From the NCBI GenBank assembly GCA_963756875.1, contig CAVWPA010000003.1, positions 1,056,001 through 1,120,000 on the forward strand: DNA of 64,000 nt, written 5' to 3'. This DNA is from an uncultured Verrucomicrobiae bacterium. GTDB taxonomy: Bacteria > Verrucomicrobiota > Verrucomicrobiia > Chthoniobacterales > UBA10450. Position numbers and translations under genes: made by a program. Position 1 is the stretch's first letter, and every line of letters begins with the position of its first letter. The notes under the pieces are model-generated. The model had not been told where the DNA came from and searched no databases. It saw nothing but the letters and a program-made list of their open reading frames with translations. Shown here one piece after another: positions 1 to 18,011 of the stretch.

Positions 1-2052
1 ATCTGGAAGTTTCCACTGACGTTTTCCCAGCAAGCCGCCGCACTTTCCATGGCACACCTTTTTGTGCTCGCAGCCGGCGCTTTCCTCCTCGCTCGGGGTC
101 GGCTGCGCGACAACGCGAACTTCGAAGCGCCCTCACCCCAACCCTCTCCCTCAGGGAGAGGAGGACGACGAAGTCGCCTGGTGAGGGAACTTGCAAGCGA
201 CTCCTTTGCATTGTCGGTCTTCGTTGCGCTGGTCGCTGCGTTGAATGGTTGGATCATCTGCTGGGGGGCGACGGATTGGTTTGGCGCCCTCGGTGCTTTC
301 GCCTGGTTGCCGTGGGCGTGGTGGGGGCTGGAGCGGGCTCTGGCTACCGGCAGGGATGCTGCGTTGCCAATTCATAAGCGGCTTATGATCGGAGCGCTTT
401 GGCCGGCGCCGTTCGTCTATCTGGTCGTCACCGGAGGGTTTCCATACACCGTTCTGATGCTGGCACTCCTGATCGTTTGGTTATCGATCGAATCGTTAGG
501 CCAGACACGAAGTTTTCTGTCCATTTTGCCGATGCTTTTGGGTGTGACGCTTGCCGTCGCGCTTTCCGCGCCGGCCTGGTTGGCGCTTTTTGATTACCTC
601 CATGGCTCGGCGCGGACGATGCAGACGAGTTCAATGCATTTTCAATGGCTCGTTCCACCGGCTGCGCTGCCTGGATTGATCTTGCCCTGCTGGACTGTGA
701 AATGGGCCGATTTTTACACGCATTATCTTCCGCATACAGGAACGGAACTGGCCTGCGGGCTCGTCGCGCCGGCGGCTCTCATTGCGGGACTGCTCAGTCG
801 CGGACGCGCGCCTGTTAGGCGACTCAAGTGGGATCTCGTTCTGCTCGTCGTCACGCTTTTACTCTCGATGGTCCCAACCATCAGCGTCTTCCGCTGGAGT
901 TTTCGCTGGCTGCCGTTTTTTTATTTGGTTCTCGCCTTGTGCGCGGCGGAAGCGCTGCAAGGTGGCATCGGCTTCCAACCGATGTTCACTGGCAAGATGC
1001 CCGTGATCCGGGCAGGCCTGGTCGCTCTAATTCTAGTCGCTGCTTCTGCGATCACGATGTTGATCTTCCACGTTGGCGGGGCTTACGCATTCCCGCTCAT
1101 ATGGATTTTCCTGACGATCGCCGGGATCTGGATGCTGGCCGAATTTCTTTTGCCTAACGAATCGCTGCGCGCATGGCTGCCCGCTGGCGTTACCTTTGCC
1201 GTGTTCCTGACCACCTATCTCTGCATTCCGACCAATCCCGGCGTGCCGAGGTACAATTTCAGCCAGGAACTGCTCAAAGCCGCACCGCTCGATCCGCAAC
1301 GTCTTTACCTGAGCATTTATCCGCCGCCGGAAACGAGTTATCGCGTTGAAGCGGATCCGGGGCCGGTTGGGCAGATCGTTCGACCGGGAAGCACGTCAAT
1401 GTGGAGCAAAGTTCATTTGATTAACGGCTACAGCCCGATCTCAGCGGCGGGGATCGCCTGCGAATTCAAGTTTGCAACGCACGGCGAAATCGATCCGAGC
1501 GTCGCGGAATCTCTGCTCGACGAGGAAGCAGGCCGCGATGGACTGCTGGCGCGTCTCGGAGTTGATGGAATTATCGTCGCGGGAGCAATGGATATGGCGC
1601 CGTCGCCGGAGATCCAGTGGCAGCTTGCATTTGTATCCAATAAAGGACGCGTTTATCACCGGGTCGGTGCGCCTTTTGCCCGCGTTCGATCTGTGTCGTC
1701 AATTGATACCCGACCTAACGAGCAATTTGCAACAGCCGCGATCTCACATATCGACGAGTCGCGAAATTGCGTTGCGGCAGATGTGGATGTGCCGGGCGGC
1801 GGTTCGCCTGCGCTTCTGACTTTTTCGCGTCCGTACTTTCCGGGTTACCAGGCGCGGTTGGGAAATCGAAGCCTTCGTGTTGCGTCGTATCGCGGTTTGT
1901 TCCCCACGGTTGAGGCGCCCGCTGGATCGCATGGCCGGCTGGTGCTGGCTTATCGGCCATGGTGGTTGATCTACGGAGGCGCCGTTGCAATAGTTAGCGT
2001 CGCGGTCTGGATTTTCGGCATTGCGACCGTGCTTCGAAATTTGCGGCGGTAA
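1..2052 (+). CDS. YfhO-like polytopic membrane protein (GT-C-type glycosyltransferase), 5' end outside window
   Basis: Frame is open from base 1 (IWKFPLTFSQQAAALSM...). Many TM segments, a periplasmic domain with INGYSP, and a YfhO-like C-terminus (LLTFSRPYFPGYQARL...YRP plus a final TM). Confidence 0.65.
   Translation: MWKFPLTFSQQAAALSMAHLFVLAAGAFLLARGRLRDNANFEAPSPQPSPSGRGGRRSRLVRELASDSFALSVFVALVAALNGWIICWGATDWFGALGAFAWLPWAWWGLERALATGRDAALPIHKRLMIGALWPAPFVYLVVTGGFPYTVLMLALLIVWLSIESLGQTRSFLSILPMLLGVTLAVALSAPAWLALFDYLHGSARTMQTSSMHFQWLVPPAALPGLILPCWTVKWADFYTHYLPHTGTELACGLVAPAALIAGLLSRGRAPVRRLKWDLVLLVVTLLLSMVPTISVFRWSFRWLPFFYLVLALCAAEALQGGIGFQPMFTGKMPVIRAGLVALILVAASAITMLIFHVGGAYAFPLIWIFLTIAGIWMLAEFLLPNESLRAWLPAGVTFAVFLTTYLCIPTNPGVPRYNFSQELLKAAPLDPQRLYLSIYPPPETSYRVEADPGPVGQIVRPGSTSMWSKVHLINGYSPISAAGIACEFKFATHGEIDPSVAESLLDEEAGRDGLLARLGVDGIIVAGAMDMAPSPEIQWQLAFVSNKGRVYHRVGAPFARVRSVSSIDTRPNEQFATAAISHIDESRNCVAADVDVPGGGSPALLTFSRPYFPGYQARLGNRSLRVASYRGLFPTVEAPAGSHGRLVLAYRPWWLIYGGAVAIVSVAVWIFGIATVLRNLRR
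129..187 (+). repeat. CCCTCACCC...CTCTCCC..GGGAGAGG REP-like family (in-frame copy); other copies at 27991-28047 (-), 39931-39968, 47201-47257
   Basis: Direct sequence similarity among four copies, all with a CTCTCCC/GGGAGAG hairpin. Confidence 0.85.
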
Positions 2053-2203: not shown

Positions 2204-3475
2204 CTACCGTTTCCGACGCAACTCGGATTCCGGTGCTTCAAGGGCCGCCGCGGAAAAATAAAATCCGCCGAGACCGACGGAGTGGACCAACACCCGTGCG
2301 ACATCAACGTCGAGCGGCTCCCGGATAATGCGCAGGGGACCGCACGCAGGATCGAGGCGATCGCAATTAAGCGTCGGAGGAACCTGGCCGCGCGCAATTG
2401 TTAGGCAGGCCGCCGTTATTTGAAGAGCGGATGATCCAGCGCCATGTTGCCCAAGCGCGCCCTTGGTTGAATGGATTGGCAATTTTGCCAGTCGAGTTCC
2501 GAATGTTGCTGCCAGCGCCATCCCCTCGAGCCGATCGTAATTGCGTGAAGCGGATCCGTTAGCGTTAAATACCTGCACGTCGTTTGGGGACCATCCTGCG
2601 TTCTTTATGGCGCTTCTGAAAGCCCGGACACATGGCCGCATATCGAGAGCTGGCCGCGTTGCATGATAACGGCGGCGGCCTGAAGATTGAACTGCTGTTC
2701 CTGCGATCGTCGCGTAAGCGCGCGCGCGACGTTTTCGTGCGTGCGATTCGGACTCAACAATAAACGCCGCTGCGCCTTCGCCAATAACATTGCCATCGCG
2801 ATTGATGTCGAACGGCCGCGAGGCTGCCTCCGGCCGATCGTTCCATCTCGTGGCCAGCGATGCTGAGGCGTTGAGCAGAGCGAGAATTTCAGGCGTAAGC
2901 TCGCAGTCAGTCCCGACTACAAGCGCTGCGTCCAATGTGCCAGCTTGAATGGTTTGTGCCGCGAGACCAAGCGCATCCATTCCGGAATTGCATCCGGTGG
3001 AAGTCGTGTGCACTGGTCCCTGCAAGTCAAACTGCGATGACACAACGCAGGCCACGGAATGATTGAATGCGTGAAACGCCCCCGAAGGAGTGAGCGGCCT
3101 GCGGGCCTGCCAGCGATCGCGCAGTTCAAAGCAATATTCCAATTGACCAACAGACGTGCCGACAAACACGCCGATACGTTGTCGATCGGCTGAGCGAAGC
3201 TCGAATGCCGCATCTTCGATCGCCAGGGCGGCGGCGCCGAGCGCCAGTACCACCGGTCGCGGCGACGTTCGTGTAATTGCGCGCCCACCTTCCACGTAGC
3301 GCTCGAGGCGGAAATCTCGCACCTCGGCGCCGATCTTGGAATCCGACCGGCTCACGTCGCATCGTGTGATTGGGCCGATTCCTGATCGACCACGTAGAAG
3401 CGCCTTCCAGAACTCATCGACGCCATGGCCGATCGCGCTAACCGGGCCGATGCCAGTGATGAGCGCCTTTGTCAT
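2204..3475 (-). CDS. FabF-like beta-ketoacyl-ACP synthase family protein with non-canonical active site
   Basis: ITGIGPVSAIG N-terminus, TGCNSG with catalytic Cys, SRPFD..RDGNVIGEGA. The His motifs are altered to NANGSAS and KGALGQH. Confidence 0.85.
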   Translation of the reverse strand: MTKALITGIGPVSAIGHGVDEFWKALLRGRSGIGPITRCDVSRSDSKIGAEVRDFRLERYVEGGRAITRTSPRPVVLALGAAALAIEDAAFELRSADRQRIGVFVGTSVGQLEYCFELRDRWQARRPLTPSGAFHAFNHSVACVVSSQFDLQGPVHTTSTGCNSGMDALGLAAQTIQAGTLDAALVVGTDCELTPEILALLNASASLATRWNDRPEAASRPFDINRDGNVIGEGAAAFIVESESHARKRRARAYATIAGTAVQSSGRRRYHATRPALDMRPCVRAFRSAIKNAGWSPNDVQVFNANGSASRNYDRLEGMALAATFGTRLAKLPIHSTKGALGQHGAGSSALQITAACLTIARGQVPPTLNCDRLDPACGPLRIIREPLDVDVARVLVHSVGLGGFYFSAAALEAPESELRRKR

Positions 3476-3490: not shown

Positions 3491-4042
3491 TCAATTGTAT
3501 CGGCCAAACAGCCAATTGCCCGCGGCATTCTCGTCGTTGCTAAAGTAGAACTCTTTAACACGCTCCAGCGCTTCCTGCTTCGAGATGCGACCATTTCCAG
3601 TCACGTCCAATTTTTCGAACGCCTCGTTTACTGCCGCCTGGTCGCGAATGCCGTAGGCGTCGAGGAAATCTCTAAAGTCATCGTGGGAAAGATGTTCGTC
3701 GTGATTGCGATCGAATGCCTCGAACAAAAGATCGACTGTGCCAACCGTGATCTGCTCGTACATGTCCGGCGCGCTTAACATCTGTGTGTGAAACTCCAGG
3801 AACTCGTCAAGGCTAACCTGTCCGTCGTTATTAACATCGGCCAGCGCCTTGAGATTGCCCCAAATCGTCAGATAGAGACTCTCAATTGCCGAATACTCCT
3901 TTGATCCGGCTTTCCATCCGTGGATTCGGGCGACGTTGGACACGACGGCAGTGTAATCGTTGCGCTCAAGTTGATTGTTGTGGTCCGAGTCCAGCACGGT
4001 GAACAGCCGGCCCAGCTTCTTCTTCTGAAAATCGGTGAGCAT
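3491..4042 (-). CDS. EF-hand calcium-binding protein (calerythrin/sarcoplasmic Ca-binding protein-like)
   Basis: Four EF-loop-like motifs (DSDHNNQLERND, DVNNDGQVSLDE, DRNHDEHLSHDD, DVTGNGRISKQE) and a C-terminal GNWLFG typical of this family. Confidence 0.85.
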   Translation of the reverse strand: MLTDFQKKKLGRLFTVLDSDHNNQLERNDYTAVVSNVARIHGWKAGSKEYSAIESLYLTIWGNLKALADVNNDGQVSLDEFLEFHTQMLSAPDMYEQITVGTVDLLFEAFDRNHDEHLSHDDFRDFLDAYGIRDQAAVNEAFEKLDVTGNGRISKQEALERVKEFYFSNDENAAGNWLFGRYN

Positions 4043-4185
4043 TAACGACTCTCTGTCGGCTGGGTCGCCACTGTCAAGAACGTAAGCAGCCTGCGATCCG
4101 CCCCTTTAAAGCCGCGGTGGCGGAAACATTAATAAATTTTACCGCCGTCGACAGCGGTAACTACAACTTCGTCATTCGCAACTAT

Positions 4186-5389
4186 CTAATAAACGTCGCG
4201 CTTGTAACGCTTCTCGCTCTTTAGTTGCTCGACGTAGGCGTTCGCCTCTTCGACGCTCTTGCCGCCCTGGTCCTGTATGATTTTTCGCAGCGCAGCGTCC
4301 ACATCTTTCGCCATGCGTTTGCGCGTCGCCACAGACTAAAAACTGCGCGCCCTCGCTATCGATCCATTTCCAGATTTCGGGCTCGTGCTCCAGCATTTTG
4401 TGCTGGACGTAAATTTTATGGGCCTGATCGCGCGACCAGGCGCAATCGAGTCGCGTGAGAACGCCGTCGCTCTGGAACTGCGCCAAGTCCTCCCTGTAGG
4501 CATAGTCGGATTTCTCGTGTTGCGCTCCGAAGAAGAGCCAGTTTTTTCCCTTGGCGCCGCGCGCCTGTCGCTCCTGCAGAAACGCGCGGAACGGCGCCAC
4601 GCCTGTCCCCGGTCCAACCATGATGATGGGAGTATCCGGATTTTCCGGCAGATGAAAATGTTTGGCGACGCTGGGATAAACCGGCACCGGAACGTTGTCC
4701 GCGCGTTCGGAAAGGAACGTCGAGCAGACGCCATTGCGAATCCGGCCGCGACTTTCGTAACGGACCACGTCCACGATAAAATGCACCCGGTTGGGATAAA
4801 CGCGCAGGCTGGACGCAACCGAATAAAGACGTGGCTGCAGTTTCGTGAGCAGATCGACGAATTCCTGCGGCGTGAATTTTACGGACGGATGTTCGATTAA
4901 GAAATCAATCACTTCCATGCCCCAGAGGTATGTATTCAGGTCCTGCTTGCGTTTCGGATCGAGCAGTCCCTTAAGCAGTGGCGCAGCGGAGGCCCGATCG
5001 ACGATCGCTCTCAAAAACTTGGGCGTGGGTTGTGTAATGGAACAGTCGCGTGAGAGCGCCTCACGGAAAGGTGTTTGAATTTTCGCCGCCGACACCATTT
5101 CATCGCCTTTTGCCCCAAGGGCGCGAATGATTTCTTCAACCAACTGGGGATCGTTCGTCGGATAAACTGCCAGCGAGTCACCCGGCTCGAAGCTTAATCC
5201 CCAGGCGGTGAGATCGATCTCCAGATGGCGCGTGTCCTTTTCGGACTCGGGGCCGCTCATGCGTCGATTAACGACGAGTTTGCCGGGAAACGGATTTTTC
5301 CGCGTGTACGGCGTCGTGGGCTTGGATGGTTTCGGTCCTGTAGCGGCCGCCGTCTCGGGCGGCAGAACGTTGTCTGTAACTTCCGGCAT
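4186..5389 (-). CDS. CysJ-like NADPH flavoprotein reductase, FAD/NADPH module only; +1 frameshift near 4321
   Basis: PRLYSVASS, GVCSTFL, MVGPGTGVAPFR, WLFFG, KIYVQ, VCGDA. Removing one base at ~4321 restores KRMAKDVDAAL...RYKRDVY* with stop at 4186-4188. No flavodoxin domain. Confidence 0.85.
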
Positions 5390-5509: not shown

Positions 5510-8500
5510 TCATCGCGGGGGTGGAATTGGGCTCGGCTCCACTTCCGATTCAGAGGGCGAAACTGCCGGAGATGGTGATGGCGTGGGTGCCGGAAGCGAC
5601 GTGAGAACCTTCCCGCTCCTGGTTGTCAAAACACCGCCGGAAAGCGCGACATCTTCCACGCGATACAACTCGCCTTTGCGCGGTTGGAAATCTTTTCCTT
5701 CCCCAGATGTCGATTTTCGATAAAAGCGTTCCATTTCATCGAGATGAAATGGCCGCGCTCCCCGGCGGCCGAAGACGACCGTTTGTCCACCTGTTTCATC
5801 CACCACACGATCGCGGTCTAGTCCGCGCGAGACACAAATCGCTTCACCTTTTGTGCGATAGGTCGCGATCAACTTTGGATTGGGGCGCGGATTGAATCCC
5901 TGCGCGCCGGGGACAGTGTCGGGCGAAATTAACTGCACGACGCGCAGGCCATTTTTACCGTCGGCCACCAGCGCGAACTCGGACGCGTTGACGCTGCCGA
6001 TCTGGACGGCGCGCGTGTCGTTCAATGCGCCATTCGCGCTGAACATCTGGTCGACGAACGGATGCTCCGGGTTTTCGACATCGATGATGGCCAGCCCGTC
6101 CGGCCCATTTGCCACGTAGGCGTAGGTACGCGCGACATACAAACGGCCGGCGTGATTGAGTCGCAGGGTGGCGCGTGGCAACGGGACCGGCCGTGTCGGC
6201 TCGGTGAGATCGACAATCTTCAATCCGTCGTCGTCGGTAATAAAACCGTAGCGAAATTGTACCGCAACGCAGCGTGGGTTTCGCAGGAATCCGTTCGTCA
6301 ATTGTCCCGCGATACGTGGATGCATCGGGTCGCTCACATCGATCACATAAAGTCCGCGCGGCGTCGTCATGTAAAGCCGATGCCCGGCCGCCGCGACAAA
6401 TGACGCTCCGTCCAAGACGCCGTCAGGATTAAAGGTGAGACCTTTTTTTAGGAAATTGTTATCGGGATTTCCATCGACCAATGTGGCGACATTGATGACG
6501 ACAAGGCCCTCGACGCGGTCGGAGACATAAACGAACGCGTAAAACAGGTCGATGGGCTGCTCTTCGTTCTCGGGGATATGCTTCCGCCCGGGGTCGAGCG
6601 CGAGCGTGCTCGGCAAGGCAACGGAAGTTGCGTCAGGCGTGTGCACGTACGTTCGCTGGCCAAGCGGCGAGACCGGCGAAGTCACGATCCGTTCCGAAAA
6701 TCCCTTTTGATCGATATTCGCGACATCGAACGCTTCGAAACCGCCCGGCCCGTTTGCGGTGTAAAGGTATTCGCCGCGCAAGACAACGTCTTGAATATCC
6801 TTTCCCGAATGTTCGTACGCTTCCTGCAATTCGCCGCCCAGTTCGAGGTGCTTTTTGTAATCGGCCGGATAGGCGAGCTTTTGCAGATGACTTCCGATAG
6901 CGGCTTGCGGTTCCTCGGGCTCGGTCCAGACCACGGCGTGGAATCCTTCGCGCCCTTCTCCTACGTAGGCGTAGCGTCCGAAGAAATTCACCGTGCCGGT
7001 GCCGAAGCCTAACAATTGCGCCATCCATGCATTGTTGTCGTTGTTCCTGGACAAATGGCAGTCGGTGCAATTTTTTGTCGTCCCCACGCCGCTCGTTGTG
7101 TGTGGGAAATGCGGATTGAACGCCTGACCACTGTAACCTTCCGCCGAGATGGTTTGCTGCTGGGAATAAACCCACTCCCGGTTCGCATTTTGTGAGCCGA
7201 CCACGACTGCGCTCGACGAGCGAATCACCGCCATCCGGTTCTTTTTCACGCTGCCGTCGAGCCCGAGCATGAAGACATCGTCCCGCACCACCTGCGGATT
7301 GTAAGTTGTGAAGTTCCGATCGGTCACGCCTTCGAATTTGTTTTGCGGCACGCGCTGGTTTGCTTTCATCGGCAAATGGCAGCCGAAACAACTCGTCGCC
7401 CACGAGCTGTGACAGATCTGGCAATCCATCGCCGAGTTATCGTGGGCGAGACGAACCCGGGGCTCGTTATCTTGACTGCTTAAAGCAGTCAAGTTCGCTG
7501 GAGACGTTCTCGTTTCCGGGAGAGGGCCACCCCAGGTTTTTCCATCGATGCGGAGCGTTTTTGCGTAGGCGGACTTTGGATTGTAGTGCGGCGAGAGCGG
7601 ATCGATCGTGTCGATAGTTTGCGGGATTTCCCAGCGCACATCGGGCGACATGCTCGATTGTTGCCAGAGCTTATTGCCTTCCCACGTAAACCGCGGTCCG
7701 AACGGTGTGTTGCTCGTGTGGAGCAAATCGATCTGGCCGGCGTTGCCGCTCGTAATCAGCGTCGGCCGCCGATTGATTGTGCCATGGCAATCGATGCAGG
7801 TGATTGCCGTGGCGTTGCGCGATTCGCCGTAAAGCATCCCGTTCCCGTGAACATCGATATCGAAATGGCAATCGCCGCATTGCATCCCGTCCGCGAGATG
7901 CACGTCTTTCAGGTGAACGGCTTTGGCAAACTTCCGCGGATCGTTGTCGTCGATCTTGTCGTCGTCGAGATCGAGCAGATTGCCTTTGCGATCGTGTTTG
8001 AAGACCGCGCGAAAGACCCATCCGTGGCCGTGGTAATCGGCAAACTGCGTGTGCTTGAGCTCTGGATTTAGCTCGGCGACGTGATCGAGAAAATCCTTGT
8101 CGCCCCAGAGTCCGCGCGCGGCGGCTGCTTCCGGATTGACCATCGTCGCTCTGACCAATTCTCCATCGGTCGGATTGTGCTGCTTTTTCGGATACATGAA
8201 CTCGCCGTCGGTCTCCTGGTCCCACCAGGTGTAACCGAGATACGGATTCACGAAGAGATTCCCCTGGTGCATGTGGCAGTTCATGCATTGGCTGGCCGGG
8301 ATCGAGCGTGTGAATTGATGAATAATCGGATGACCGCGCTCGGTTTTCGGAATCGTTGGATCGGCCGTGAAACTCAAGCCTTCGTGTCCGTATTTGCTCC
8401 ACCAACCCGAGTTCGTTGGCGAACGATCGTTGGCGTACACAACGTGGCAGGCCGAGCAACCGCTCGATCGGTAATCGCCCGGATGATCGTTCGAGCCCAA

Positions 8501-9460
8501 AAAACCCAGCAACGGATCGTGCAGTCGTGTTTTTTGAATCCCGAGAAAGACCGGGTCGGTACGGTTGAGCGTGCCGAGTCCGCGTTGCGACAGTCGCCGA
8601 TCGGGTTTCCCATCCGGCTCGGCGGTAGTAGGCAGGCCTAACGAAAGAGGTTTGCGCCCGCCTTTTTCGAAAATGCGCAGGATGTTTCCCGGATTGCTTA
8701 AATTGAATCGCGGCACCGGCTCGATGAATGGGAGGATGCCGTGCACGCGCGTGTCTTCGGGAGTTACCGGCGTGTAATTGATCAGCTTGAGTGGCGCGCC
8801 GTCCGCGCCGTAAGCCTGGCCGAACCGGTAGTTTTTCAGGTAAAACCCGCCGTTATTATATAGAGCCGCCCCCCAGAGCAAGGCGCCGGTGTTCATCATG
8901 CTGTGATCGACGTCGCGAATAATGCGCTCGTGACAAAGCCCGCAGGCTTGCTCGGCCACGCGCAGATCGCCGGGATTGAAAAATCGAATGAATTCCGGCG
9001 ACTCATGGTTCAGCCGCGTGTTGGAACGCGGCGGGTTGGCTGACGTTTTCCAAAATTCCTTGTCCCTCGGCAAAATATGCGCCTGCTCTTTTTTGAGATT
9101 GAGGGCCGGGTTGCCGCCGTGGCAATCAGTGCAGCCAAGCACGACGTGCTGCGCTTTGTGCATCGGTTCGATGTCTTTGTGGCATTGCAAACAGCCGACG
9201 CTCTTTGCGTTCGCCTGGGCTTGCGTCTGGTCGATCCAATTCCGCGGCGGCAACGCGACCGGCGCAACAGTGGATTTTGAAACAGGGACGGAAGTGGGCG
9301 GCCCGTAACCGGTTTCGGAAGCACCAAGCACCAGGTTCCAAGTTCCAATGAAGCACCAAGCCCCAATCATCAAGCTCCAACGGAAATGAGCGTGTGTGTG
9401 CTTTGGATTTTGGAGATTGGAGTTTCTCCGCTGCTTGGCGCTTGGTGCCTGGTGCTTCAT
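5510..9460 (-). CDS. Large decaheme c-type cytochrome fused to C-terminal LVIVD-repeat (beta-propeller-like) region
   Basis: Ten CxxCH motifs (CLQCH, CTDCH, CGLCH, CSACH, CMNCH, CGDCH, CIDCH, CQICH, CFGCH, CTDCH) at ~9193-7055. Repeats such as YAYVANGPDGLAIIDVENP and GLYVIDVSDP follow. Probable ATG at 9460 overlaps the upstream stop (TGATG). Confidence 0.85.
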   Translation of the reverse strand: MKHQAPSAKQRRNSNLQNPKHTHAHFRWSLMIGAWCFIGTWNLVLGASETGYGPPTSVPVSKSTVAPVALPPRNWIDQTQAQANAKSVGCLQCHKDIEPMHKAQHVVLGCTDCHGGNPALNLKKEQAHILPRDKEFWKTSANPPRSNTRLNHESPEFIRFFNPGDLRVAEQACGLCHERIIRDVDHSMMNTGALLWGAALYNNGGFYLKNYRFGQAYGADGAPLKLINYTPVTPEDTRVHGILPFIEPVPRFNLSNPGNILRIFEKGGRKPLSLGLPTTAEPDGKPDRRLSQRGLGTLNRTDPVFLGIQKTRLHDPLLGFLGSNDHPGDYRSSGCSACHVVYANDRSPTNSGWWSKYGHEGLSFTADPTIPKTERGHPIIHQFTRSIPASQCMNCHMHQGNLFVNPYLGYTWWDQETDGEFMYPKKQHNPTDGELVRATMVNPEAAAARGLWGDKDFLDHVAELNPELKHTQFADYHGHGWVFRAVFKHDRKGNLLDLDDDKIDDNDPRKFAKAVHLKDVHLADGMQCGDCHFDIDVHGNGMLYGESRNATAITCIDCHGTINRRPTLITSGNAGQIDLLHTSNTPFGPRFTWEGNKLWQQSSMSPDVRWEIPQTIDTIDPLSPHYNPKSAYAKTLRIDGKTWGGPLPETRTSPANLTALSSQDNEPRVRLAHDNSAMDCQICHSSWATSCFGCHLPMKANQRVPQNKFEGVTDRNFTTYNPQVVRDDVFMLGLDGSVKKNRMAVIRSSSAVVVGSQNANREWVYSQQQTISAEGYSGQAFNPHFPHTTSGVGTTKNCTDCHLSRNNDNNAWMAQLLGFGTGTVNFFGRYAYVGEGREGFHAVVWTEPEEPQAAIGSHLQKLAYPADYKKHLELGGELQEAYEHSGKDIQDVVLRGEYLYTANGPGGFEAFDVANIDQKGFSERIVTSPVSPLGQRTYVHTPDATSVALPSTLALDPGRKHIPENEEQPIDLFYAFVYVSDRVEGLVVINVATLVDGNPDNNFLKKGLTFNPDGVLDGASFVAAAGHRLYMTTPRGLYVIDVSDPMHPRIAGQLTNGFLRNPRCVAVQFRYGFITDDDGLKIVDLTEPTRPVPLPRATLRLNHAGRLYVARTYAYVANGPDGLAIIDVENPEHPFVDQMFSANGALNDTRAVQIGSVNASEFALVADGKNGLRVVQLISPDTVPGAQGFNPRPNPKLIATYRTKGEAICVSRGLDRDRVVDETGGQTVVFGRRGARPFHLDEMERFYRKSTSGEGKDFQPRKGELYRVEDVALSGGVLTTRSGKVLTSLPAPTPSPSPAVSPSESEVEPSPIPPPR
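7463..7500. repeat. CTTGACTGCT-N3-AGCAGTCAAG palindromic element (coding copy); intergenic copy at 23944-23982
   Basis: The reverse complement of 7463-7500 matches 23944-23982 with one indel and one mismatch. Confidence 0.85.
9318..9458. repeat. Heptamer-based (TTGGNGC/GCNCCAA) inverted-repeat element; related tract at 51005-51090
   Basis: GAAGCACCA...TGGTGCTTC termini with internal 7-bp periodicity. Confidence 0.75.
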
Positions 9461-11529
9461 CAATAAGTGAGCGTCACGGTCACGATGGCGCTGTAAAGAA
9501 ACGGATCGACGTGGCCGCCTGGCGGGCTGGGATAACCGGGCACGGGCGTCGTGATGGTGCGATAGATGTCCCTGTAACCCGTGCGCGGAATGAGGAACCC
9601 CGTGCCGGCGGTGACGATGATGTTTTCGGTGAGCAACGGCCGCCATTCAAACCCGGCGCTGCAGTCGAGCGCGAAATCGTTACTCCCGTGGTTGGTAAAA
9701 AGGACCAGCTCGGTCGTTGCCGTGTCAACCGTGCGAATGTAATTCACGTTCATGAAGCCTCTCAGCTTTGGTGTGATGTCGGCATCGAGCCCATAACCGA
9801 AGATGAGCGCTCCCGGATTCACGAAGTTGGCCTGGCCTTCGGTTTTGCTGGTACGGAAATCGATCACCAGGCTGTCGCGTTGCTTAAAGTTGACCGACGT
9901 TCCGCCGAGATTGAATCCCTGGTGCGAATAAAAGCTGAATGGTCCGCCGATAAAAAATGGCCGGTCCATCACTGTGTCGAAGCCGGTGGCGTGCGAGTCC
10001 GCCGGGTTGCTGTCGCCGCTCGCGTAAAAAATCGACAATTTGTGCCGGAGCCAGTTGTTGTCGACAGACAACTCGAGTGCGGCCATGTGCGCGTTGATGT
10101 TGGTGCGCTTTCCGGCGATCCCGTTGAGACTGTCCTCACCAAGGACCTGATAAAGCGCGTGGTCGATGTTGAGCCAGCCGATGTGTCCGTCGCCGGTCCA
10201 ACCGAGATAGTATGCCTGCACGTAATGATCACCCACCGTGCCGATCGGTGCGGGCCGGGTAATGAAGCCGTTCTTGTCGTAATGCCGGCTGTTGTTGTCG
10301 AAATCGGCCAGAAACGTGAGCTCGCCGGTGTAACCCTTCCAAATTAAATCCTGCCGGAAGACGTTCGCGACATAAACCTGTTGCTGGCGCCGGCTGAATT
10401 CGTTCAGATCGGAGTAGGTGTCCTTCTCCAGCATATCGAAGGCGGCGACGTTGTATTGCCAGCGGTTATTGTCGTAGTTGCCGAAGATGCGCACGCCGAG
10501 GTTGGTATCGTTGAAAATGAACCCGCGAAAATCGCTCACGAACGGCTGAATGCCTGCGCGCATAGAAACGAAATCGTAATTGCTCGAAAGATCGCGCAGA
10601 TGGATTTCGGCGAATGCTTCCTGCATGGAGAAGAATTCCTTTTCGCGCGTGGTCCCGTTCTGCGGGTTGGGATTGACGACCCGGTTCTCCTCCACGTCGA
10701 TGTAGTTGTGATTGTAGACGCCGAGAAAGCGCAGCGCCCAATCGACCGGCTTGAATGCCGTCTCACCCTTGAAAAGATCGACGCCGATCGAAAAATCGTT
10801 CGAGTAAAAAAGTTGGTCGCTCAATCCGAAAAACTCGGAGCTGTTCGGCTGCGCGGAGCTTACGCCGCTTGGAGTCGGGAGTTTGCGCGCCTCGAATTGA
10901 AAGAAATCTTCCAGGGTGATGTTGAGGAAAACGTCCTGGCCGTAAATCGGCGCGTCTCCTTTGAGTTTGCTTTGCAAATAGGGATGCCACAGTCGCAACT
11001 CCGATTGATAAGGCGTTTCGGTCGACGGATCGGCGTAGCGCTTCCAACGGCCGAAACCGATGAACCAGCGGTTCGGCTCGGGCCGCGACGACGGCAGCAG
11101 GCCTTCGCCCTGTTCTGATTCCGGGTAAATTTCATATTGGAGTTCGCGACGACGCGGCACCACCTCGCGGACACCCTTGCGCGGAAGTTGAAGTGAGCGC
11201 GGCAATGGTTCCTCGCCGTATTCCGGAAGCTGCGGAAGAATGGGCGGGAAAAGTTCGGGCGGCGCTTCCGGCTCGGTCCGTTCGGATGCCCCGGGGTCCG
11301 GATTAAATTCGGAAGGGTATTCTTCATCGTCTTGCGCGAGGAGGGTGGTATTCGCGAAAATCAAATCGCCCCGAAGTGCAAGAATCGGCGGGCTGTAGCT
11401 GGGATTGTCGATCCCGGCCGATGATTGGGACTCGAGGTTTCCGGTATTGACCTCGACGGTCTGCCCGTGCCCCGCGCCGATACCGGTGCAAGAAAGGAGT
11501 CCGGCAAACAGCGCGATCCTCCGGCGCAT
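9460..11529 (-). CDS. Putative outer-membrane beta-barrel protein
   Basis: Signal peptide MRRRIALFAGLLSCTGIGAGHG, an acidic Pro-rich N-region, aromatic/Gly-rich alternating strands, and a C-terminal SAIVTVTLTY with terminal aromatic residue (BAM-signal-like). Confidence 0.7.
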   Translation of the reverse strand: MRRRIALFAGLLSCTGIGAGHGQTVEVNTGNLESQSSAGIDNPSYSPPILALRGDLIFANTTLLAQDDEEYPSEFNPDPGASERTEPEAPPELFPPILPQLPEYGEEPLPRSLQLPRKGVREVVPRRRELQYEIYPESEQGEGLLPSSRPEPNRWFIGFGRWKRYADPSTETPYQSELRLWHPYLQSKLKGDAPIYGQDVFLNITLEDFFQFEARKLPTPSGVSSAQPNSSEFFGLSDQLFYSNDFSIGVDLFKGETAFKPVDWALRFLGVYNHNYIDVEENRVVNPNPQNGTTREKEFFSMQEAFAEIHLRDLSSNYDFVSMRAGIQPFVSDFRGFIFNDTNLGVRIFGNYDNNRWQYNVAAFDMLEKDTYSDLNEFSRRQQQVYVANVFRQDLIWKGYTGELTFLADFDNNSRHYDKNGFITRPAPIGTVGDHYVQAYYLGWTGDGHIGWLNIDHALYQVLGEDSLNGIAGKRTNINAHMAALELSVDNNWLRHKLSIFYASGDSNPADSHATGFDTVMDRPFFIGGPFSFYSHQGFNLGGTSVNFKQRDSLVIDFRTSKTEGQANFVNPGALIFGYGLDADITPKLRGFMNVNYIRTVDTATTELVLFTNHGSNDFALDCSAGFEWRPLLTENIIVTAGTGFLIPRTGYRDIYRTITTPVPGYPSPPGGHVDPFLYSAIVTVTLTY

Positions 11530-11705
11530 AATCGCGCCGGTACACGATGGACTTAACCAGCGCATGGGAGTGCGAGAATGCCGGAGATACCCGGTTATTG
11601 GCAAGCTAACACGGAAGGCAGCCCGGACCGGCTAAGGCAACATCTTGGGATAGCAGCTGATTTTTAGTGGCAAATCATGGCTGATCTTGGTAGACCGGAG
11701 TGGCC

Positions 11706-13514
11706 ATGAAGCCGGCTTGGTCGCATTCTTTCGGACTGCCGATTTTTCTCGCGGTCCTCCTCGGGGCGCCGCGGATTTTTGCTTATCCGCCGGAGCCGGT
11801 CATCGTCGCGTCCACCGGAAACCATTACGTTGTAACGTGGGATGCGGCCTATTCCGACGGATTTCATCTCGAATCGAGTTCGGACCTCGGGGCCATGAAC
11901 TGGACCTCAGTTACAGCGGCACCCACGATTGTCGGCGATAAAAAACAGGTCGTGGTCACGGGAACGGGCGCACCAACGTTTTTTCGGCTGGCTGCTCCGC
12001 TGGTGCTCAGCCCGCTCACGGCTGCTGATGTTCAAACAATCATTAATCACGCGGTGACGCGCGCCGTCACTGTTTCGCCGAACAGCGTGATTGCAGTGAC
12101 CGATCGCGAGGGGGATGTGCTGGCCGTCTGGGTCGTGCGCGGGGGAGCGGCCAGTAACGAGGAGATTGCCACGGCGGTTTCAAAGGCGGGCACCGCAGCG
12201 TTTTTAAGCAGCAATCAGAATGCGTTTAGCTCGCGCACGGCCGGGTTCATCATCCAGCAACATTTTCCACCTGGAGTGAGTAACACCTCGACAGGGCCGC
12301 TGGTCGGTGTCGGCCTATCAAGTCTTTTTATTTCCGACATCGATAAGTTTAGAAAACCGGGCAGCATCATTTCGTTCAGTCCAACGCCGGGCCTGACAAT
12401 TTTACCGGTGCCGAACACTTCGCTGGATGGTTCGCCAGGCGGTCTGCCACTTTACAAGAACGGCAAACTCGTTGGCGCAATCGGCGTCACCGGCGACGGA
12501 ACGCCGTCGGCAATTGCCGGGTTCCGCTCGGAAAATCCGTTCAAATACATCGCCGGCTCCGATGTGGACGAGGATGTCGCGCTAGCCGGAAAAAAGGGAT
12601 TTGCGCCGTCGTCCAGCATTACCGCGGACAATGTTTTCATCAGCGGAATTCGCCTTGCTTACGTGAACTCGTCGACGTCGACCTCTAATACTATTGTGCT
12701 GCAAGGCAATCCGGATCCGCAATATCCCACAATTCTGGCGCCGCCGCCGCCGTTTCCCTATCCCGCGGCAACCTTCGGTGGCGTCAGCGGAGAGATTCGC
12801 CAGCCGATTATCAGCGACCCGATGGTTGGCCTGATCGATGGGCAGCCGCGTCTCACTGCTGCCGAAGTCTCGAGCATCATTACGTACGCGGCGCAACGGG
12901 TGAAGATCACGCGCGCGGCCATTCGGCTTCCCATCGGCACGCAAATGGAGGCGTTCATCAGCGTCGTGAATAATCCGGACATGCCAGGTGTTACGCCCAC
13001 TGTGTTGGGAACGTTTCGCACCGGTGACGCAACTTTGTTCAGCTGGGATGTCGCCGTGCAGAAAGCGCGCACCGCACTCTATTATTCGAGCCATGATTTT
13101 CTCGGTTTCGGTTCGAACATCTCCATGTCGGTACGCTGTGTCGGATTTCTTGCGGAATGCAATTATCCACCCGGTATCGATGGCAATCCGCCGGGCCCGT
13201 TCAACGGACAGCAGGAAATGTTTTCCGGTTTGTCAGGCACTTCCTGCAATCCGGGGGCCATCGTGCCAAACCTAGCCTTTGTGCCCGATCCGAATTTGCC
13301 GAATGGAATTACGATTTTTCCCGGCGGCTTCGGCCTTTATCGCAACGGCGTGCTTATCGGCGCGATCGGGGTCAGCGGCGACGGAGTCGATCAGGACGAC
13401 CTCGTCAGCGCGTCCGGCACACAGGATTTTCTCGCACCGAATGCCATTCGCTCCGATCAATTCTTTTTCCGGGGCACGCGGCTTCCCTACGCGAAATTCC
13501 CGCGCGACCCGTGA
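11706..13514 (+). CDS. Secreted protein with two GlcG/HbpS-type heme-binding domains
   Basis: Signal peptide, then two copies of the family signature: AVSKAGTA...PGGLPLYKNGKLVGAIGVTG and AVQKARTA...PGGFGLYRNGVLIGAIGVSGDGVDQD. Confidence 0.8.
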   Translation: MKPAWSHSFGLPIFLAVLLGAPRIFAYPPEPVIVASTGNHYVVTWDAAYSDGFHLESSSDLGAMNWTSVTAAPTIVGDKKQVVVTGTGAPTFFRLAAPLVLSPLTAADVQTIINHAVTRAVTVSPNSVIAVTDREGDVLAVWVVRGGAASNEEIATAVSKAGTAAFLSSNQNAFSSRTAGFIIQQHFPPGVSNTSTGPLVGVGLSSLFISDIDKFRKPGSIISFSPTPGLTILPVPNTSLDGSPGGLPLYKNGKLVGAIGVTGDGTPSAIAGFRSENPFKYIAGSDVDEDVALAGKKGFAPSSSITADNVFISGIRLAYVNSSTSTSNTIVLQGNPDPQYPTILAPPPPFPYPAATFGGVSGEIRQPIISDPMVGLIDGQPRLTAAEVSSIITYAAQRVKITRAAIRLPIGTQMEAFISVVNNPDMPGVTPTVLGTFRTGDATLFSWDVAVQKARTALYYSSHDFLGFGSNISMSVRCVGFLAECNYPPGIDGNPPGPFNGQQEMFSGLSGTSCNPGAIVPNLAFVPDPNLPNGITIFPGGFGLYRNGVLIGAIGVSGDGVDQDDLVSASGTQDFLAPNAIRSDQFFFRGTRLPYAKFPRDP

Positions 13515-15992: not shown

Positions 15993-16904
15993 TTAAAACG
16001 CGCCATGCAGCGCCACCATCCCGTAAGGCGCTGTGCCGTCCTGGTGGTAGCGCACTTCGGTCCGGAAAAAGTCGAAGCTTCGATATGGTTGGTAGCCGGC
16101 TTCCGCGGTCAACGTAAGGATTGGCGAAATCCTCCAATCGCAGCCTCCGCCCGTTCGCACTTCGCTGTAAGTGAGGACCGCATGGTTTAGCTCCGGCTTT
16201 CCTTGTTTGTCGCCGAAATGGTCGTCCACGCGGTAGTTCGTCTCCTTCACGTTCGCACCCAGATACAGAGTCAGGTTTCTGTTCCAATCAAACTCGATTC
16301 GCGGCGTCGGCAGAACGGCATTCATGACCCATTGTCGAGAAACTTTCCATCGGAATCCGGCAGCCGGAATGACCGGAAACTTGCGCTCAACATCGACGCT
16401 CACCCCGACGACGAACTGCAGGTTCGGATTGTAGATATAAGTGCCGCCAACGATGAAAGGCATGTTGAAGTCGTCCGATAAATTGTTCACTCCGGTGTTA
16501 TACATTCCCGGAGTGCCTTCGAGTCTGATCAGAATCGAATCGGACAACTGGGTATCGAATCCGATGACAAGACCGATCGATTGCAGAGTGTCCGGGAGCA
16601 GAGCGTTCCGCGGAAATCCGAACACAAATCGCTCCCACTCCGCGCCGATCCGGAGCACGCCAATGTTGATCCGCGGAGTGAAAACAAAGCGCAGGATGGC
16701 GTCGCTTTCGTCGAATCCGTCGACCTTGTGCCGTCCGCGCTCCACGCCGGCCTCTCCAACGTAGGTTTCCTCCGCGAGATATTCGCCGGAACGAAAGAAC
16801 GAAACGATGGGTTGGGTAACGGCGTCCTGGCCCGCGGCGAGAGTACTCAAAAGACAAAACCCGGCAGCGACGGCGAGGCGGTTTAGGGCGGGACTTTTTT
16901 TCAT
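15993..16904 (-). CDS. Outer-membrane beta-barrel protein (DUF6268-like)
   Basis: Signal peptide, amphipathic strands, PVIPAAGFRW / VLPTPRI pattern, C-terminal Phe. Confidence 0.65.
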   Translation of the reverse strand: MKKSPALNRLAVAAGFCLLSTLAAGQDAVTQPIVSFFRSGEYLAEETYVGEAGVERGRHKVDGFDESDAILRFVFTPRINIGVLRIGAEWERFVFGFPRNALLPDTLQSIGLVIGFDTQLSDSILIRLEGTPGMYNTGVNNLSDDFNMPFIVGGTYIYNPNLQFVVGVSVDVERKFPVIPAAGFRWKVSRQWVMNAVLPTPRIEFDWNRNLTLYLGANVKETNYRVDDHFGDKQGKPELNHAVLTYSEVRTGGGCDWRISPILTLTAEAGYQPYRSFDFFRTEVRYHQDGTAPYGMVALHGAF

Positions 16905-16908
16905 GCGC

Positions 16909-17925
16909 TTAACGCCCGCCGGTGTCGCGACGGAAGAACGTGACCGCTTTGGATACGTTCTTCATCATGGCCGATTCCGACCCGAGCCGCTCGATTCCGT
17001 GCAAATCGGCCAGGGAAGCCGCCGAAGTCATATCGCCGCGCCAGACCAGCGTGGAAGCTTTTCCATCCACAGTCACGGGCCACAATTGATAAAGCGTAAG
17101 GGCGACGTAGTACCCGCCGCTGGCATAATAAAGGGCATCTGCTGATTGCCGCGTTCCGTTCGCGCCAGCGCGACTGTAAGAGGCGCCCAGCGTGACTACG
17201 CCCTGATCGTCCACATCGAGCAGTTCCCAATAAAGTTCCGGCGTCAATGAGCCGGCGCCGCGACCAATCGCGGTCTTGGCAAGAAAACCGGAAAACTGTT
17301 TGCGAATCTTGTCCTGATTTTTCAACAGCGAGTTGAATTCCTCGCCCGGACGAATGGTCTCGCCGCTGTAATTGTAAGGCGGTTGCGCGGAAGTCCCGCC
17401 GGAGACGAAGCTTTTTGTTCGTGCAGTCAGCACATCGCTCCAAAAATTCACGACGGCTGCCGGCATGGTCTCGTTCCCGCCGCCTTCGCCGGAAAGTTTT
17501 TTCGCTTCTTCTTTGCTGATTTGCAGATCCGAGCTGAGTTTTTCTGTCGCGTTTACAAATGCGTGCACGGAGCCGTTGTCAGGCGCGTCCTTTAATCTGG
17601 AGAAGTCGGCCGCGGTCGGCGATGCGGAAAGATCGGAGTGCAGGAAGACCTTCAACTCTGAATGTTTGGTCGGGTTCCATTTTTGCTGCGCTTCGAGTTC
17701 TTTGTCGGGAGCGCGGGAGACGACGTAAACACTTTCCACGGAAAGAAAACGTCCGCCCATCGGCGGACCGTGCGCCGTTTTGACATCGCCCTTCGCTAAC
17801 TCGTTGATGTCGACATTGTCGAATACGGAAAAGCTGGCCAGTTCGGACACAGCATCGGCATGCGCGGCTATCGGGCCCGCGAGCAAGAGCACGAGTGGAA
17901 GTGACAACGGGAATAAATAGCGCAT
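16909..17925 (-). CDS. Exported hypothetical protein
   Basis: Signal peptide MRYLFPLSLPLVLLLAGPIAAHA; 4-bp gap to the downstream barrel gene. Confidence 0.75.
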   Translation of the reverse strand: MRYLFPLSLPLVLLLAGPIAAHADAVSELASFSVFDNVDINELAKGDVKTAHGPPMGGRFLSVESVYVVSRAPDKELEAQQKWNPTKHSELKVFLHSDLSASPTAADFSRLKDAPDNGSVHAFVNATEKLSSDLQISKEEAKKLSGEGGGNETMPAAVVNFWSDVLTARTKSFVSGGTSAQPPYNYSGETIRPGEEFNSLLKNQDKIRKQFSGFLAKTAIGRGAGSLTPELYWELLDVDDQGVVTLGASYSRAGANGTRQSADALYYASGGYYVALTLYQLWPVTVDGKASTLVWRGDMTSAASLADLHGIERLGSESAMMKNVSKAVTFFRRDTGGR

Positions 17926-18011
17926 GATTTGGAATCTAATTGGCAGACTAACTAATCGCTGGCGGCCCATGGTTGCAAATGCGATCACATCATCGCAATA
18001 GCTTTTAAGCC

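Follow-up and report, generated by a model that had tools for sequence, protein, structure and literature searches.

The window examined here is a stretch of 64,000 nucleotides from an uncultured Verrucomicrobiae bacterium of the order Chthoniobacterales (GenBank assembly GCA_963756875.1, contig CAVWPA010000003.1, positions 1,056,001 to 1,120,000 of the forward strand). It carries a trio of neighboring genes for a predicted outer-membrane beta-barrel, a ten-heme cytochrome that ends in an LVIVD-type propeller, and a secreted protein with two HbpS/GlcG-like domains. We found that this trio is a conserved, co-inherited unit that recurs in Verrucomicrobiota and Acidobacteriota and on a Sphingobium plasmid. 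Our preferred reading, to which we give a little less than an even chance, is that the trio sits at the outer-membrane end of an NAD(P)H-fed envelope electron-transfer chain of several components and forms its terminal module. Porin-associated multiheme chains are known as a kind, and this outer module is undescribed in print as far as our literature search reaches.

The trio was first pointed out in an original prediction that a model had made from the letters alone. It had described a signal-peptide protein of 689 amino acids (aa) ending in TLTY, whose stop codon overlaps the start of a protein of about 1316 aa with ten CxxCH motifs, and a divergently transcribed, secreted protein with two GlcG/HbpS domains across a gap of about 175 bp. 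Each part of this description agrees with our translations and motif scans. The 689-aa barrel protein starts at the ATG at 11529, inside an open reading frame (ORF) that spans 9460-11604 on the reverse strand; its N-terminus resembles a signal peptide and hydrophobic residues alternate at its TLTY end. In the TGATG overlap, the TGA of the barrel gene (9462-9460) and the ATG of the cytochrome gene (9460-9458) have one A in common. The cytochrome gene lies directly 3' of the barrel gene (5510-9460, reverse strand) and encodes 1316 aa, or 1286 aa if it begins 30 residues later as one public gene caller has it. A motif scan of the 1316-aa protein found exactly ten CxxCH motifs and neither a CxxCK nor a CX3-4CH motif. 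The HbpS-like gene encodes 604 aa with a signal-peptide-like start, and 170 bp separate it from the barrel gene (176 bp if the ATG at 11706 is used); a sigma-70-type promoter scan returned no site in this divergent region. All three genes are intact in the assembly.

To count neighborhoods, a barrel profile made from 13 closer rows was scanned against one genome per prokaryote species, which confirmed at least 596 stretches, and the counts given here rest on the best 80 of them (loci L002-L081). By their deposited labels these loci belong to Verrucomicrobiota and Acidobacteriota, with a few bins obviously mislabelled. Downstream sequence of at least 2 kb was available in 64 loci. In 59 of these the cytochrome gene stands directly 3' of the barrel gene on the same strand; one further locus has it at 7.9 kb and four are without it. 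An HbpS-like gene is present in 60 of the 80 loci. Where at least 2 kb of upstream sequence was available (64 loci), it is divergent and adjacent to the barrel gene in 43, elsewhere in the locus in nine, and absent from 12. Measured over the best segment, the cytochromes share 42-86% identity with the window protein, the barrels 40-84% and the HbpS-like proteins 34-71%, the cytochrome being the best conserved. Sampling 301 genomes of the window's own phylum turned up the cytochrome in 7, namely all three genomes of its own family and 4 of the 26 in a second family. For the phylum of locus L057 (labelled Acidobacteriota) the count is at least 31 of 301, one unpublished genome (G351) included; it is a lower bound because the first-pass filter was stricter.

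A cultured organism that is not a pathogen, Sphingobium herbicidovorans MH, holds the whole set in one place on its 959-kb plasmid pMSHV (locus tags B6S01_RS18410-18455). One strand of the plasmid encodes a 4-heme cytochrome, a tandem HbpS-like lipoprotein, the barrel, a ten-heme protein 45% identical to the window cytochrome, and a 214-aa protein. The opposite strand encodes a protein with cyclic-nucleotide-binding (cNMP) domains, an inner membrane protein and a decaheme cytochrome. Co-occurrence of the three genes across phyla, on which the original prediction depended, is therefore established by the counts above together with this plasmid.

The ten CxxCH motifs of the cytochrome, at residues 90, 110, 173, 335, 392, 528, 555, 680, 691 and 798, form two groups of five, residues 90-392 and residues 528-798, and long stretches without hemes are inserted between them. 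The spacing is about 72 residues per heme inside the heme region and 132 per heme over the whole protein. All ten sites are kept in 52 of 52 aligned full-length cytochromes. Site 3 is a CX3-4CH motif in 20 of the 52 (CX3CH in two), all of the acidobacterial type (within L039-L081), and is CxxCH in the verrucomicrobial sequences. Besides the heme motifs, 11 His and 3 Met are invariant in this alignment. Behind the hemes, Pfam LVIVD (PF08309) matches residues 1104-1134 with 60.8 bits against a cut-off of 20.2, and the mean column conservation of the propeller region (0.6-0.8) equals that of the heme region. After the propeller the window protein runs out in a Pro/Ser-rich tail down to nucleotide 5513. 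This C-terminal tail is variable in the family; a hydrophobic helix with basic residues ends 4 of 51 homologues, or five counting L060, which falls just below the cut-off. These helix and Arg/Lys-rich C-termini (L049, L053, L060, L064, L078) are acidobacterial and may be membrane anchors or sorting signals.

The search for a lipobox in the N-termini of the window cytochrome and its homologues found none, every match being the second heme motif. A single-sequence search of the Protein Data Bank (PDB) with the cytochrome gave E values of 0.2 or worse. A profile search reached octaheme nitrite reductase (E 8.5e-6) and NrfB (E 0.004), in both cases over short heme-motif stretches only. The best NCBIfam match was ExtM (NF040943), likewise over short heme-motif stretches. 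Geobacter ExtM resembles the window protein in being a multiheme protein of an outer-membrane-associated cluster (ext), but 70.3 bits against a cut-off of 800 means that the cytochrome described here is no member of that family; nor does the module belong to the Geobacter Pcc families. There was no DmsE-family match in NCBIfam. The absence of MtrB_PioB and DmsE-family matches and the low ExtM score bear out the earlier view that the set is unlike any characterised complex.

These features bear on whether the cytochrome works at the cell surface, in true extracellular electron transfer. It would then be carried outside, for example by type II export, and would directly reduce insoluble Fe(III) or Mn(IV) oxides or humics, with the barrel as its outer-membrane dock or as the route that the electrons take. 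LVIVD is described as a cell-surface repeat (Pfam text; bioRxiv 10.1101/2022.05.06.490989), the cytochrome has a weak MtrC/MtrF domain match (E 0.0035), the genome holds secretin genes, and a porin gene beside a multiheme cytochrome gene is the criterion by which PCC candidates were chosen (PMC5615132, PMC5566968). Against this placement, the trio encodes no periplasmic cytochrome of a size that would fit through a barrel of about 18 strands, the homologues with a helix and basic tail end in what looks like an inner membrane anchor, and the carriers are mostly aerobes. Surface cytochromes evolve fast, unlike this protein with its 45-86% identity across phyla. We consider a surface role unlikely, at about the same level as two further proposals discussed below.

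The original prediction that the 689-aa protein would model as a beta-barrel proved correct. In an AlphaFold2 model built on a 45-row alignment, residues 1-147 are disordered, and from about residue 180 the chain is confidently predicted (predicted local distance difference test, pLDDT, mostly >90) with about 18 long strands. An internal segment at about residues 504-573 is long, contains short helices and carries the most conserved motifs of the family. When the model was compared with the PDB by Foldseek, AlgE was the top match (E 2.5e-16, TM-score 0.66-0.69 on the target), followed by Campylobacter MOMP, the OccD/OccK (OprD) channels and chitoporin, so that the top matches are 18-strand channels for substrates or polymers. 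No MtrB chain was among the Foldseek matches listed. The protein matched no Pfam or NCBIfam family, MtrB_PioB included. Alginate_exp (PF13372) is touched by one of 45 barrel homologues at E 0.0094 and has no match in the window protein; in ESM-Atlas one nearest cluster with a Pfam family is Alginate_exp, with a score of 0.95. The protein thus resembles AlgE and the OprD/Occ channels in fold and size, whereas it is no sequence member of Alginate_exp and has no polysaccharide genes near the trio. It models as an AlgE/OprD-sized, channel-type barrel rather than as an MtrB-type sheath.

MtrB is similar in length to the 689-aa protein. An arrangement like that of MtrCAB, MtoAB and PioAB, in which the barrel would enclose part of the cytochrome and the hemes would cross the outer membrane inside it, draws on this similarity, on the ten hemes that the cytochrome has in common with MtrA, and on the tight coupling of the two genes. 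A barrel gene beside a decaheme gene, in an envelope electron-chain context, is what the trio shares with those systems. The barrel itself makes such a sheath unlikely because it has about 18 strands and is AlgE/OprD-like: only some 540 residues form it, and its best structural matches are 18-strand channels, with no MtrB among those listed and no MtrB_PioB family match. The cytochrome differs as well, being four times longer than its counterpart in those systems and carrying a propeller. Its 132 residues per heme compare with about 33 in MtrA (PMC5566968), and as a 1316-aa protein with ten hemes and no DmsE-family match it lacks the compact decaheme form of MtrA and DmsE. Of all the explanations weighed here we regard this as the least credible.

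Relatives of the barrel are numerous, with 1456 at E <=0.001 and 437 at <=1e-30 among 1.84 billion cluster representatives. The homologues range from 493 to 1302 aa, and the length differences lie mainly in the N-terminal extension and depend on lineage; a CarboxypepD_reg domain sits within this extension in 4 of 45 homologues. Six of the 80 loci (L021, L026, L033, L041, L044, L046) hold paralogous barrels that match only residues 293-689, at about 60% identity, and have no cytochrome. The three of these that were examined (L033, L041, L044) lie in unrelated contexts, for example TamB/Omp85 and SMC, with neither a cytochrome nor an HbpS neighbor, and we conclude from this that the barrel family is wider than its cytochrome-linked subfamily. 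One paralogous barrel gene lies directly 3' of TamB and Omp85/POTRA genes.

Such paralogues, beside TamB/Omp85 and unrelated genes in 6 of 80 loci, lend some weight to the idea that the barrel is an assembly or export partner of the large cytochrome, or a general porin that happens to share an operon, and has no part in electron transfer; AlgE itself is an export pore. The strict adjacency to the cytochrome in the linked subfamily (59/64) speaks against this, and the strongly conserved internal loop argues for a specific job. We therefore rate a barrel with no redox role as very improbable.

A more serious contender, held by us as a minority view, is that the cytochrome works as a redox enzyme in the periplasm and has the barrel as a porin for its substrate. 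The propeller or one of the hemes would act on a small soluble compound (an N-oxide, sulfur compound or peroxide, for instance) that comes in through the barrel, and the heme chain would do no more than supply this site. The enzyme-like conservation of the cytochrome, the likeness of the barrel to substrate-specific channels (OprD, chitoporin, AlgE) and the weak local resemblance to octaheme nitrite reductase and to NrfA and NrfB all suit it, and the authors who described Ptd note a possible link to the nitrogen cycle (bioRxiv 10.1101/2023.11.21.568154). On the other side, 11 invariant His and 3 invariant Met give enough distal ligands for ten six-coordinate hemes, the cytochrome has no CxxCK or other catalytic-heme signature, and Pfam and NCBIfam detected no cofactor-binding family in the propeller. 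The proposal overlaps our preferred reading, and the chief difference is the nature of the final acceptor.

The third member of the trio scores 62.7 bits against a cut-off of 25 with PF03928 in Pfam, in two stretches. Its HbpS-like domains span about residues 106-266 and 385-590 and follow a signal-like segment and a small N-terminal domain, and both keep the glycine-rich motif of the family. Sequence matches in the PDB fall on the second domain only and are to the C-domain of PduO-type adenosyltransferase and to GlcG/EfgA. The last eleven residues of the protein (594-604) are nearly invariant among 50 homologues from two phyla; judging by sequence, this C-terminal tail looks like a possible docking peptide, whose partner might be the propeller.

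To find further partners of the trio, all ORFs of the 80 loci were clustered and the recurrent clusters were scanned for families. A decaheme cytochrome of 430-580 aa with ten CxxCH motifs recurs in 20 loci. In 31 there is a membrane protein of about 300 aa that matches no Pfam family; it stands alone, or it forms the rear part of a fusion whose front part has two or three cyclic-nucleotide-binding domains together with a 4Fe-4S dicluster domain. Other neighbors are an FAD/NAD protein of the FNR type that has a 2Fe-2S domain or an FMN protein of the Nuo51 type, and a c554-like cytochrome with 3-4 hemes (14 loci); loci of the Pyrinomonadaceae type add proteins with 4, 7 and 9 hemes. Among the stand-alone inner membrane proteins, two WX3HX13H motifs are found in 17/17 and SGxxG in 16/17, and four His are invariant. 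A reciprocal search of metagenome contigs with the inner membrane protein confirmed 582 stretches, of which 80 were kept and 22 formed loci of at least 12 kb. These 22 held the decaheme in 19, the cNMP/Fe-S protein in 20, the c554-like cytochrome in 15, the ten-heme propeller protein in 10 and the barrel in 7.

The same inner parts are encoded in the genome to which the window belongs (2.69 Mb in 3 contigs, 87.6% complete). The inner membrane protein (C3:97643-98884) has WX3HX13H at residues 198 and 387 and SGxxG at 239, and it is adjoined by a decaheme (C3:98917-100360; L084 8917-10360) that a frameshift near codon 380-388 splits into a 456-aa ORF with six CxxCH motifs and an overlapping 115-aa ORF with four. 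Nuo51-like, NuoG-like and cNMP/4Fe-4S genes lie at C3:125451-130188, the protein with cNMP and Fer4 domains being encoded at C3:128902-130188, and a c554-like cytochrome at C3:485056-486186. Directly 3' of the last gene stands a second ResB-like gene (729 aa, C3:486083-488272; L085 5083-7272), a candidate for a dedicated maturation factor. The cytochrome c maturation system that the original prediction proposed to look for is present as system II (ResB and CcsA, C3:382066-385148). The genome also has three heme-copper oxidase loci, and its nearest relatives are labelled Candidatus Udaeobacter or Chthoniobacterales.

This inner half is common to two gene sets described earlier. PCC4 was described as a porin, periplasmic 4-, 5- and 10-heme cytochromes, an inner membrane protein, an Fe-S protein and redox genes, and the inner membrane protein of PCC3 and PCC4 was recognised by signature motifs and likened to the di-heme-b ferric-reductase domain (He, Barco, Emerson, Roden 2017, PMC5566968). 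The ptdABCDEFG set, taken here as a later name for the PCC4 cluster, comprises a pentaheme protein with a beta-sandwich (PtdA), a porin named PtdB, an FAD/NAD(P) oxidoreductase, a tetraheme, a cNMP/4Fe-4S protein, a ferric-reductase-like membrane protein and a decaheme (bioRxiv 10.1101/2023.11.21.568154). In the accounts given there, both are bioinformatic candidates whose function both author groups state as unknown, and they come mostly from marine and freshwater Proteobacteria, Nitrospirales and Planctomycetes (PMC5566968; bioRxiv 10.1101/2023.11.21.568154). The five-helix inner membrane protein with two WX3HX13H motifs and SGxxG is present in our genome, outside the window, and the decaheme stands beside it here as in 19 of the 22 long metagenome loci. 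Cytoplasmic redox parts are represented by the cNMP and Fer4 protein beside Nuo51- and NuoG-like genes here, and by FNR-Fer2 or Nuo51 proteins in relatives.

The outer half of PCC4 and Ptd also includes a porin gene, but the texts of the two papers contain neither a 1300-aa ten-heme propeller protein nor a tandem HbpS-like protein. The pair of PtdA and PtdB can be set beside our ten-heme protein and barrel by description only. When shorter, pentaheme relatives of the cytochrome resembling PtdA were sought, the 120 matches listed looked like contig-end fragments of the same family. ESM-Atlas neighbors hint, as a lead only, at shorter LVIVD-cytochrome forms in Planctomycetota and Pseudomonadota. 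A literature search on LVIVD together with multiheme or cytochrome brought up nothing concerning this protein.

Under our preferred reading, electrons would run outward. They would pass from cytoplasmic NAD(P)H to flavin and Fe-S clusters, cross the inner membrane through two b hemes, and move over the periplasmic decaheme to the ten hemes of the 1316-aa protein as the last carrier. That protein would stay in the periplasm, at or under the outer membrane, and its propeller end would be the site that meets the final partner. The barrel of about 18 strands would be a channel and not a sheath, through which a small redox-active solute reaches or leaves the propeller site; a quinone-type shuttle and Fe(III) or Mn in chelated form are the most plausible solutes. 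Alternatively it would anchor the complex. The tandem HbpS-like protein would be a stoichiometric accessory that possibly docks through its invariant tail. We infer binding, localisation and direction throughout this scheme. We count in its favor the translational coupling of barrel and cytochrome and their same-strand adjacency in 59 of 64 loci, the ten conserved heme sites with invariant His and Met enough for ten six-coordinate transfer hemes, the channel-like barrel fold, the recurrent inner module in relatives and its presence in this genome, and the CysJ-like flavoprotein gene that comes after the cytochrome gene. When the barrel core (148-689) was co-folded with residues 815-1270 of the propeller region, the scores were 0.08 and 0.00 against a mark of 0.32, which speaks neither for nor against binding.

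As to direction, ferric-reductase-domain proteins of the NOX, FRE and MsrQ type have two b hemes and pass electrons outward. The likeness of the inner part to such a transmembrane di-heme-b wire, fed by cytoplasmic NAD(P)H flavoproteins, suggests outward flow here too (by analogy, and with the comparison drawn in PMC5566968). The reverse course has been drawn for PCC4 in iron oxidisers (PMC5566968): Fe(II), and by extension Mn(II) or reduced humics, would be oxidised outside and the electrons would run inward to the respiratory chain, where the heme-copper oxidases of the carriers could accept them. The cytoplasmic parts linked to the module, Fe-S proteins and dehydrogenase modules that bind NAD(P)H and FMN, fit an internal electron source, and the carriers, to judge from their deposited labels, are heterotrophs not known as iron oxidisers. 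Electron transfer from Fe(II) to NAD(P)+ is uphill, and through a simple di-heme-b wire it would be energetically unfavorable. Uptake of electrons is accordingly quite improbable in our estimation.

The original prediction of a dedicated outer-membrane machine for electron transfer, or for substrate import plus redox chemistry, is supported in part; as an account of the whole it falls short, since the trio is only the outer part of a larger system. Its further claim, that such a system is unexpected in an aerobic heterotroph, was not sustained. With three heme-copper oxidase loci in this genome and relatives labelled Udaeobacter or Chthoniobacterales, the module is typical of aerobes.

A number of observations weigh against the outward chain that we prefer. 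In this genome the trio lies apart from the inner module, and only 10 of the 22 long metagenome loci link that module to the ten-heme propeller protein. Contact between any two proteins of the module is shown by none of our results, and the placement of the 1316-aa protein in the periplasm rather than at the cell surface is a deduction of ours. The PCC4 authors propose inward flow, from Fe(II) (PMC5566968). The cytochrome has 253 of 1316 positions conserved at 98% or more across two phyla, an enzyme-like level that suits catalysis as well as a wire. For the geometry of the heme chain, a fold of residues 45-880 on the 52-row alignment was unusable (mean pLDDT 49, predicted TM-score 0.35), and a wide structure comparison made with it (VIA-align) gave three meaningless rows at Z 2.0-2.2. 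In the HbpS-like protein no His, Cys or Met reaches 95% conservation (50 homologues), and 'heme-binding' is for this reason only a family name in its case. Members of the barrel family occur in unrelated contexts. No RNA runs carrying the locus were listed, and two soil DNA runs hold small shares of it, 0.10 and 0.07. Finally, the decaheme and a flavoprotein gene downstream of the trio are frameshifted in the assembly. Assembly indels are a likely cause, because cox1 (C1:382950-384303) and another porin (L082 16087-18247) are split too; decay could be the cause instead.

In a bolder and, to our minds, rather unlikely extension of the outward chain, the system would be an envelope-spanning bacterial counterpart of the eukaryotic NOX/FRE ferric reductases, used by abundant aerobic soil oligotrophs for nutrition or defence and not for respiration. 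NAD(P)H electrons, gated by the cyclic-nucleotide-binding Fe-S subunit, would pass through two b and more than 20 c hemes and arrive at a reaction site that the propeller carries, at a channel in the outer membrane. Possible uses would be reductive mobilisation of Fe or Mn, or the controlled extracellular production of a reductant or of reactive oxygen species, and the users would be Udaeobacter-like Verrucomicrobiota, Pyrinomonadaceae, Bryobacteraceae and sphingomonads. The likeness to NOX, FRE and MsrQ lies in the di-heme-b wire and its supply from NAD(P)H flavoproteins; the difference is that the wire feeds at least 20 c-type hemes and an outer-membrane barrel here and does not act on the substrate directly.

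One published candidate from the same phylum had to be compared with the trio. He et al. 2017 (mSphere, PMC5615132), the only relevant paper that a search on Udaeobacter and cytochrome brought up, describe a verrucomicrobial pair of porin and multiheme cytochrome that also occurs in 'Ca. Udaeobacter copiosus'. The porin gene again stands beside that of a multiheme cytochrome, but the cytochrome is periplasmic with eight conserved heme sites and the porin has at least 20 strands (PMC5615132), whereas ten sites are invariant in our family. A better-fitting locus exists at C3:392-395 kb, where a lipoprotein-like cytochrome of 304 aa (seven CxxCH and one CX4CH) is followed by a split porin of about 700 aa ending in YRF. 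We rejected the identification of the trio with this candidate on the grounds of heme number and of this other locus; to judge from the paper's text, it is most probably a different system. The surrounding region (L082, C3:376001-396000) is a second multiheme region of the genome, with a Rieske protein, cytochrome b and a 9-heme cytochrome, the ResB and CcsA genes, an 11-heme cytochrome with a cytochrome b561-like protein, and a 6-heme NapC/NirT-like protein.

Table 1. Features of the trio and its immediate surroundings, with positions in the window
Feature	Position	Strand	Basis
Terminator-like hairpin, 9 pairs and T-rich tail	4139..4160	-	Just 3' of flavoprotein gene
CysJ-like NADPH flavoprotein	4172..5389	-	Pfam FAD_binding_1 and NAD_binding_1, without flavodoxin domain
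LVIVD-type propeller region of cytochrome, residues ~820-1262	5675..7003	-	Pfam LVIVD; boundaries estimated from sequence
Ten-heme region of cytochrome, residues ~85-805	7046..9208	-	Motif positions, conservation, weak Pfam cytochrome c3/c7 matches
N-terminal basic and hydrophobic export segment of cytochrome, residues 1-48	9317..9460	-	Translation
Barrel core, residues 148-689, ~18 strands	9463..11088	-	AlphaFold2 model, Foldseek, invariant columns
Signal peptide and disordered Pro/Glu-rich extension of barrel protein, residues 1-147	11089..11529	-	pLDDT <50
Divergent intergenic region	11530..11699		Between barrel operon and HbpS-like gene
Secreted tandem HbpS/GlcG-like protein, 604 aa	11700..13514	+	Translation, Pfam, PDB sequence matches, conservation

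The flavoprotein gene begins 120 bp downstream of the cytochrome gene on the same strand and occupies the same place in five close relatives (L009-L012, L015). With NCBIfam cysJ its product scores 377.6 bits, under the cut-off of 668, and as a CysJ-like protein it is of a type other than the FNR-Fer2 or Nuo51 proteins of the relatives. According to tblastn its frameshift lies near 4320; the ORF is out of frame after residue ~358, and the conserved C-terminus continues in another frame to ~4189. The hairpin that follows may mark the end of an operon of barrel, cytochrome and flavoprotein. The evidence for this is weak because the region holds 18 such sites against 13.2 (standard deviation 3.5) in shuffled controls. 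Just downstream of the flavoprotein gene lies a gene for a 183-aa protein with several EF-hand calcium-binding motifs (3491-4042, reverse strand), and next after it a beta-ketoacyl synthase gene (2204-3475). A 667-aa protein with no Pfam or NCBIfam family (49-2052, forward strand) shares 56% identity with an ORF close to the module in L011. On the far side of the HbpS-like gene, the reverse-strand stretch 15993-18467 holds the gene of a DUF6268 protein and, after it, ORFs of 359 and 160 aa that belong to no family.

The carriers of these genes include lineages that dominate aerobic soils, and the barrel family is present in at least 596 species-genome stretches. If NAD(P)H electrons are indeed exported in oxic soils, the finding would bear on the turnover of iron, manganese and humics outside anoxic niches, and it would add a porin-cytochrome architecture that bypasses the sheath principle of Mtr. 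Since Sphingobium herbicidovorans MH is cultured and carries the whole set in one place on pMSHV, the question can be tested directly.

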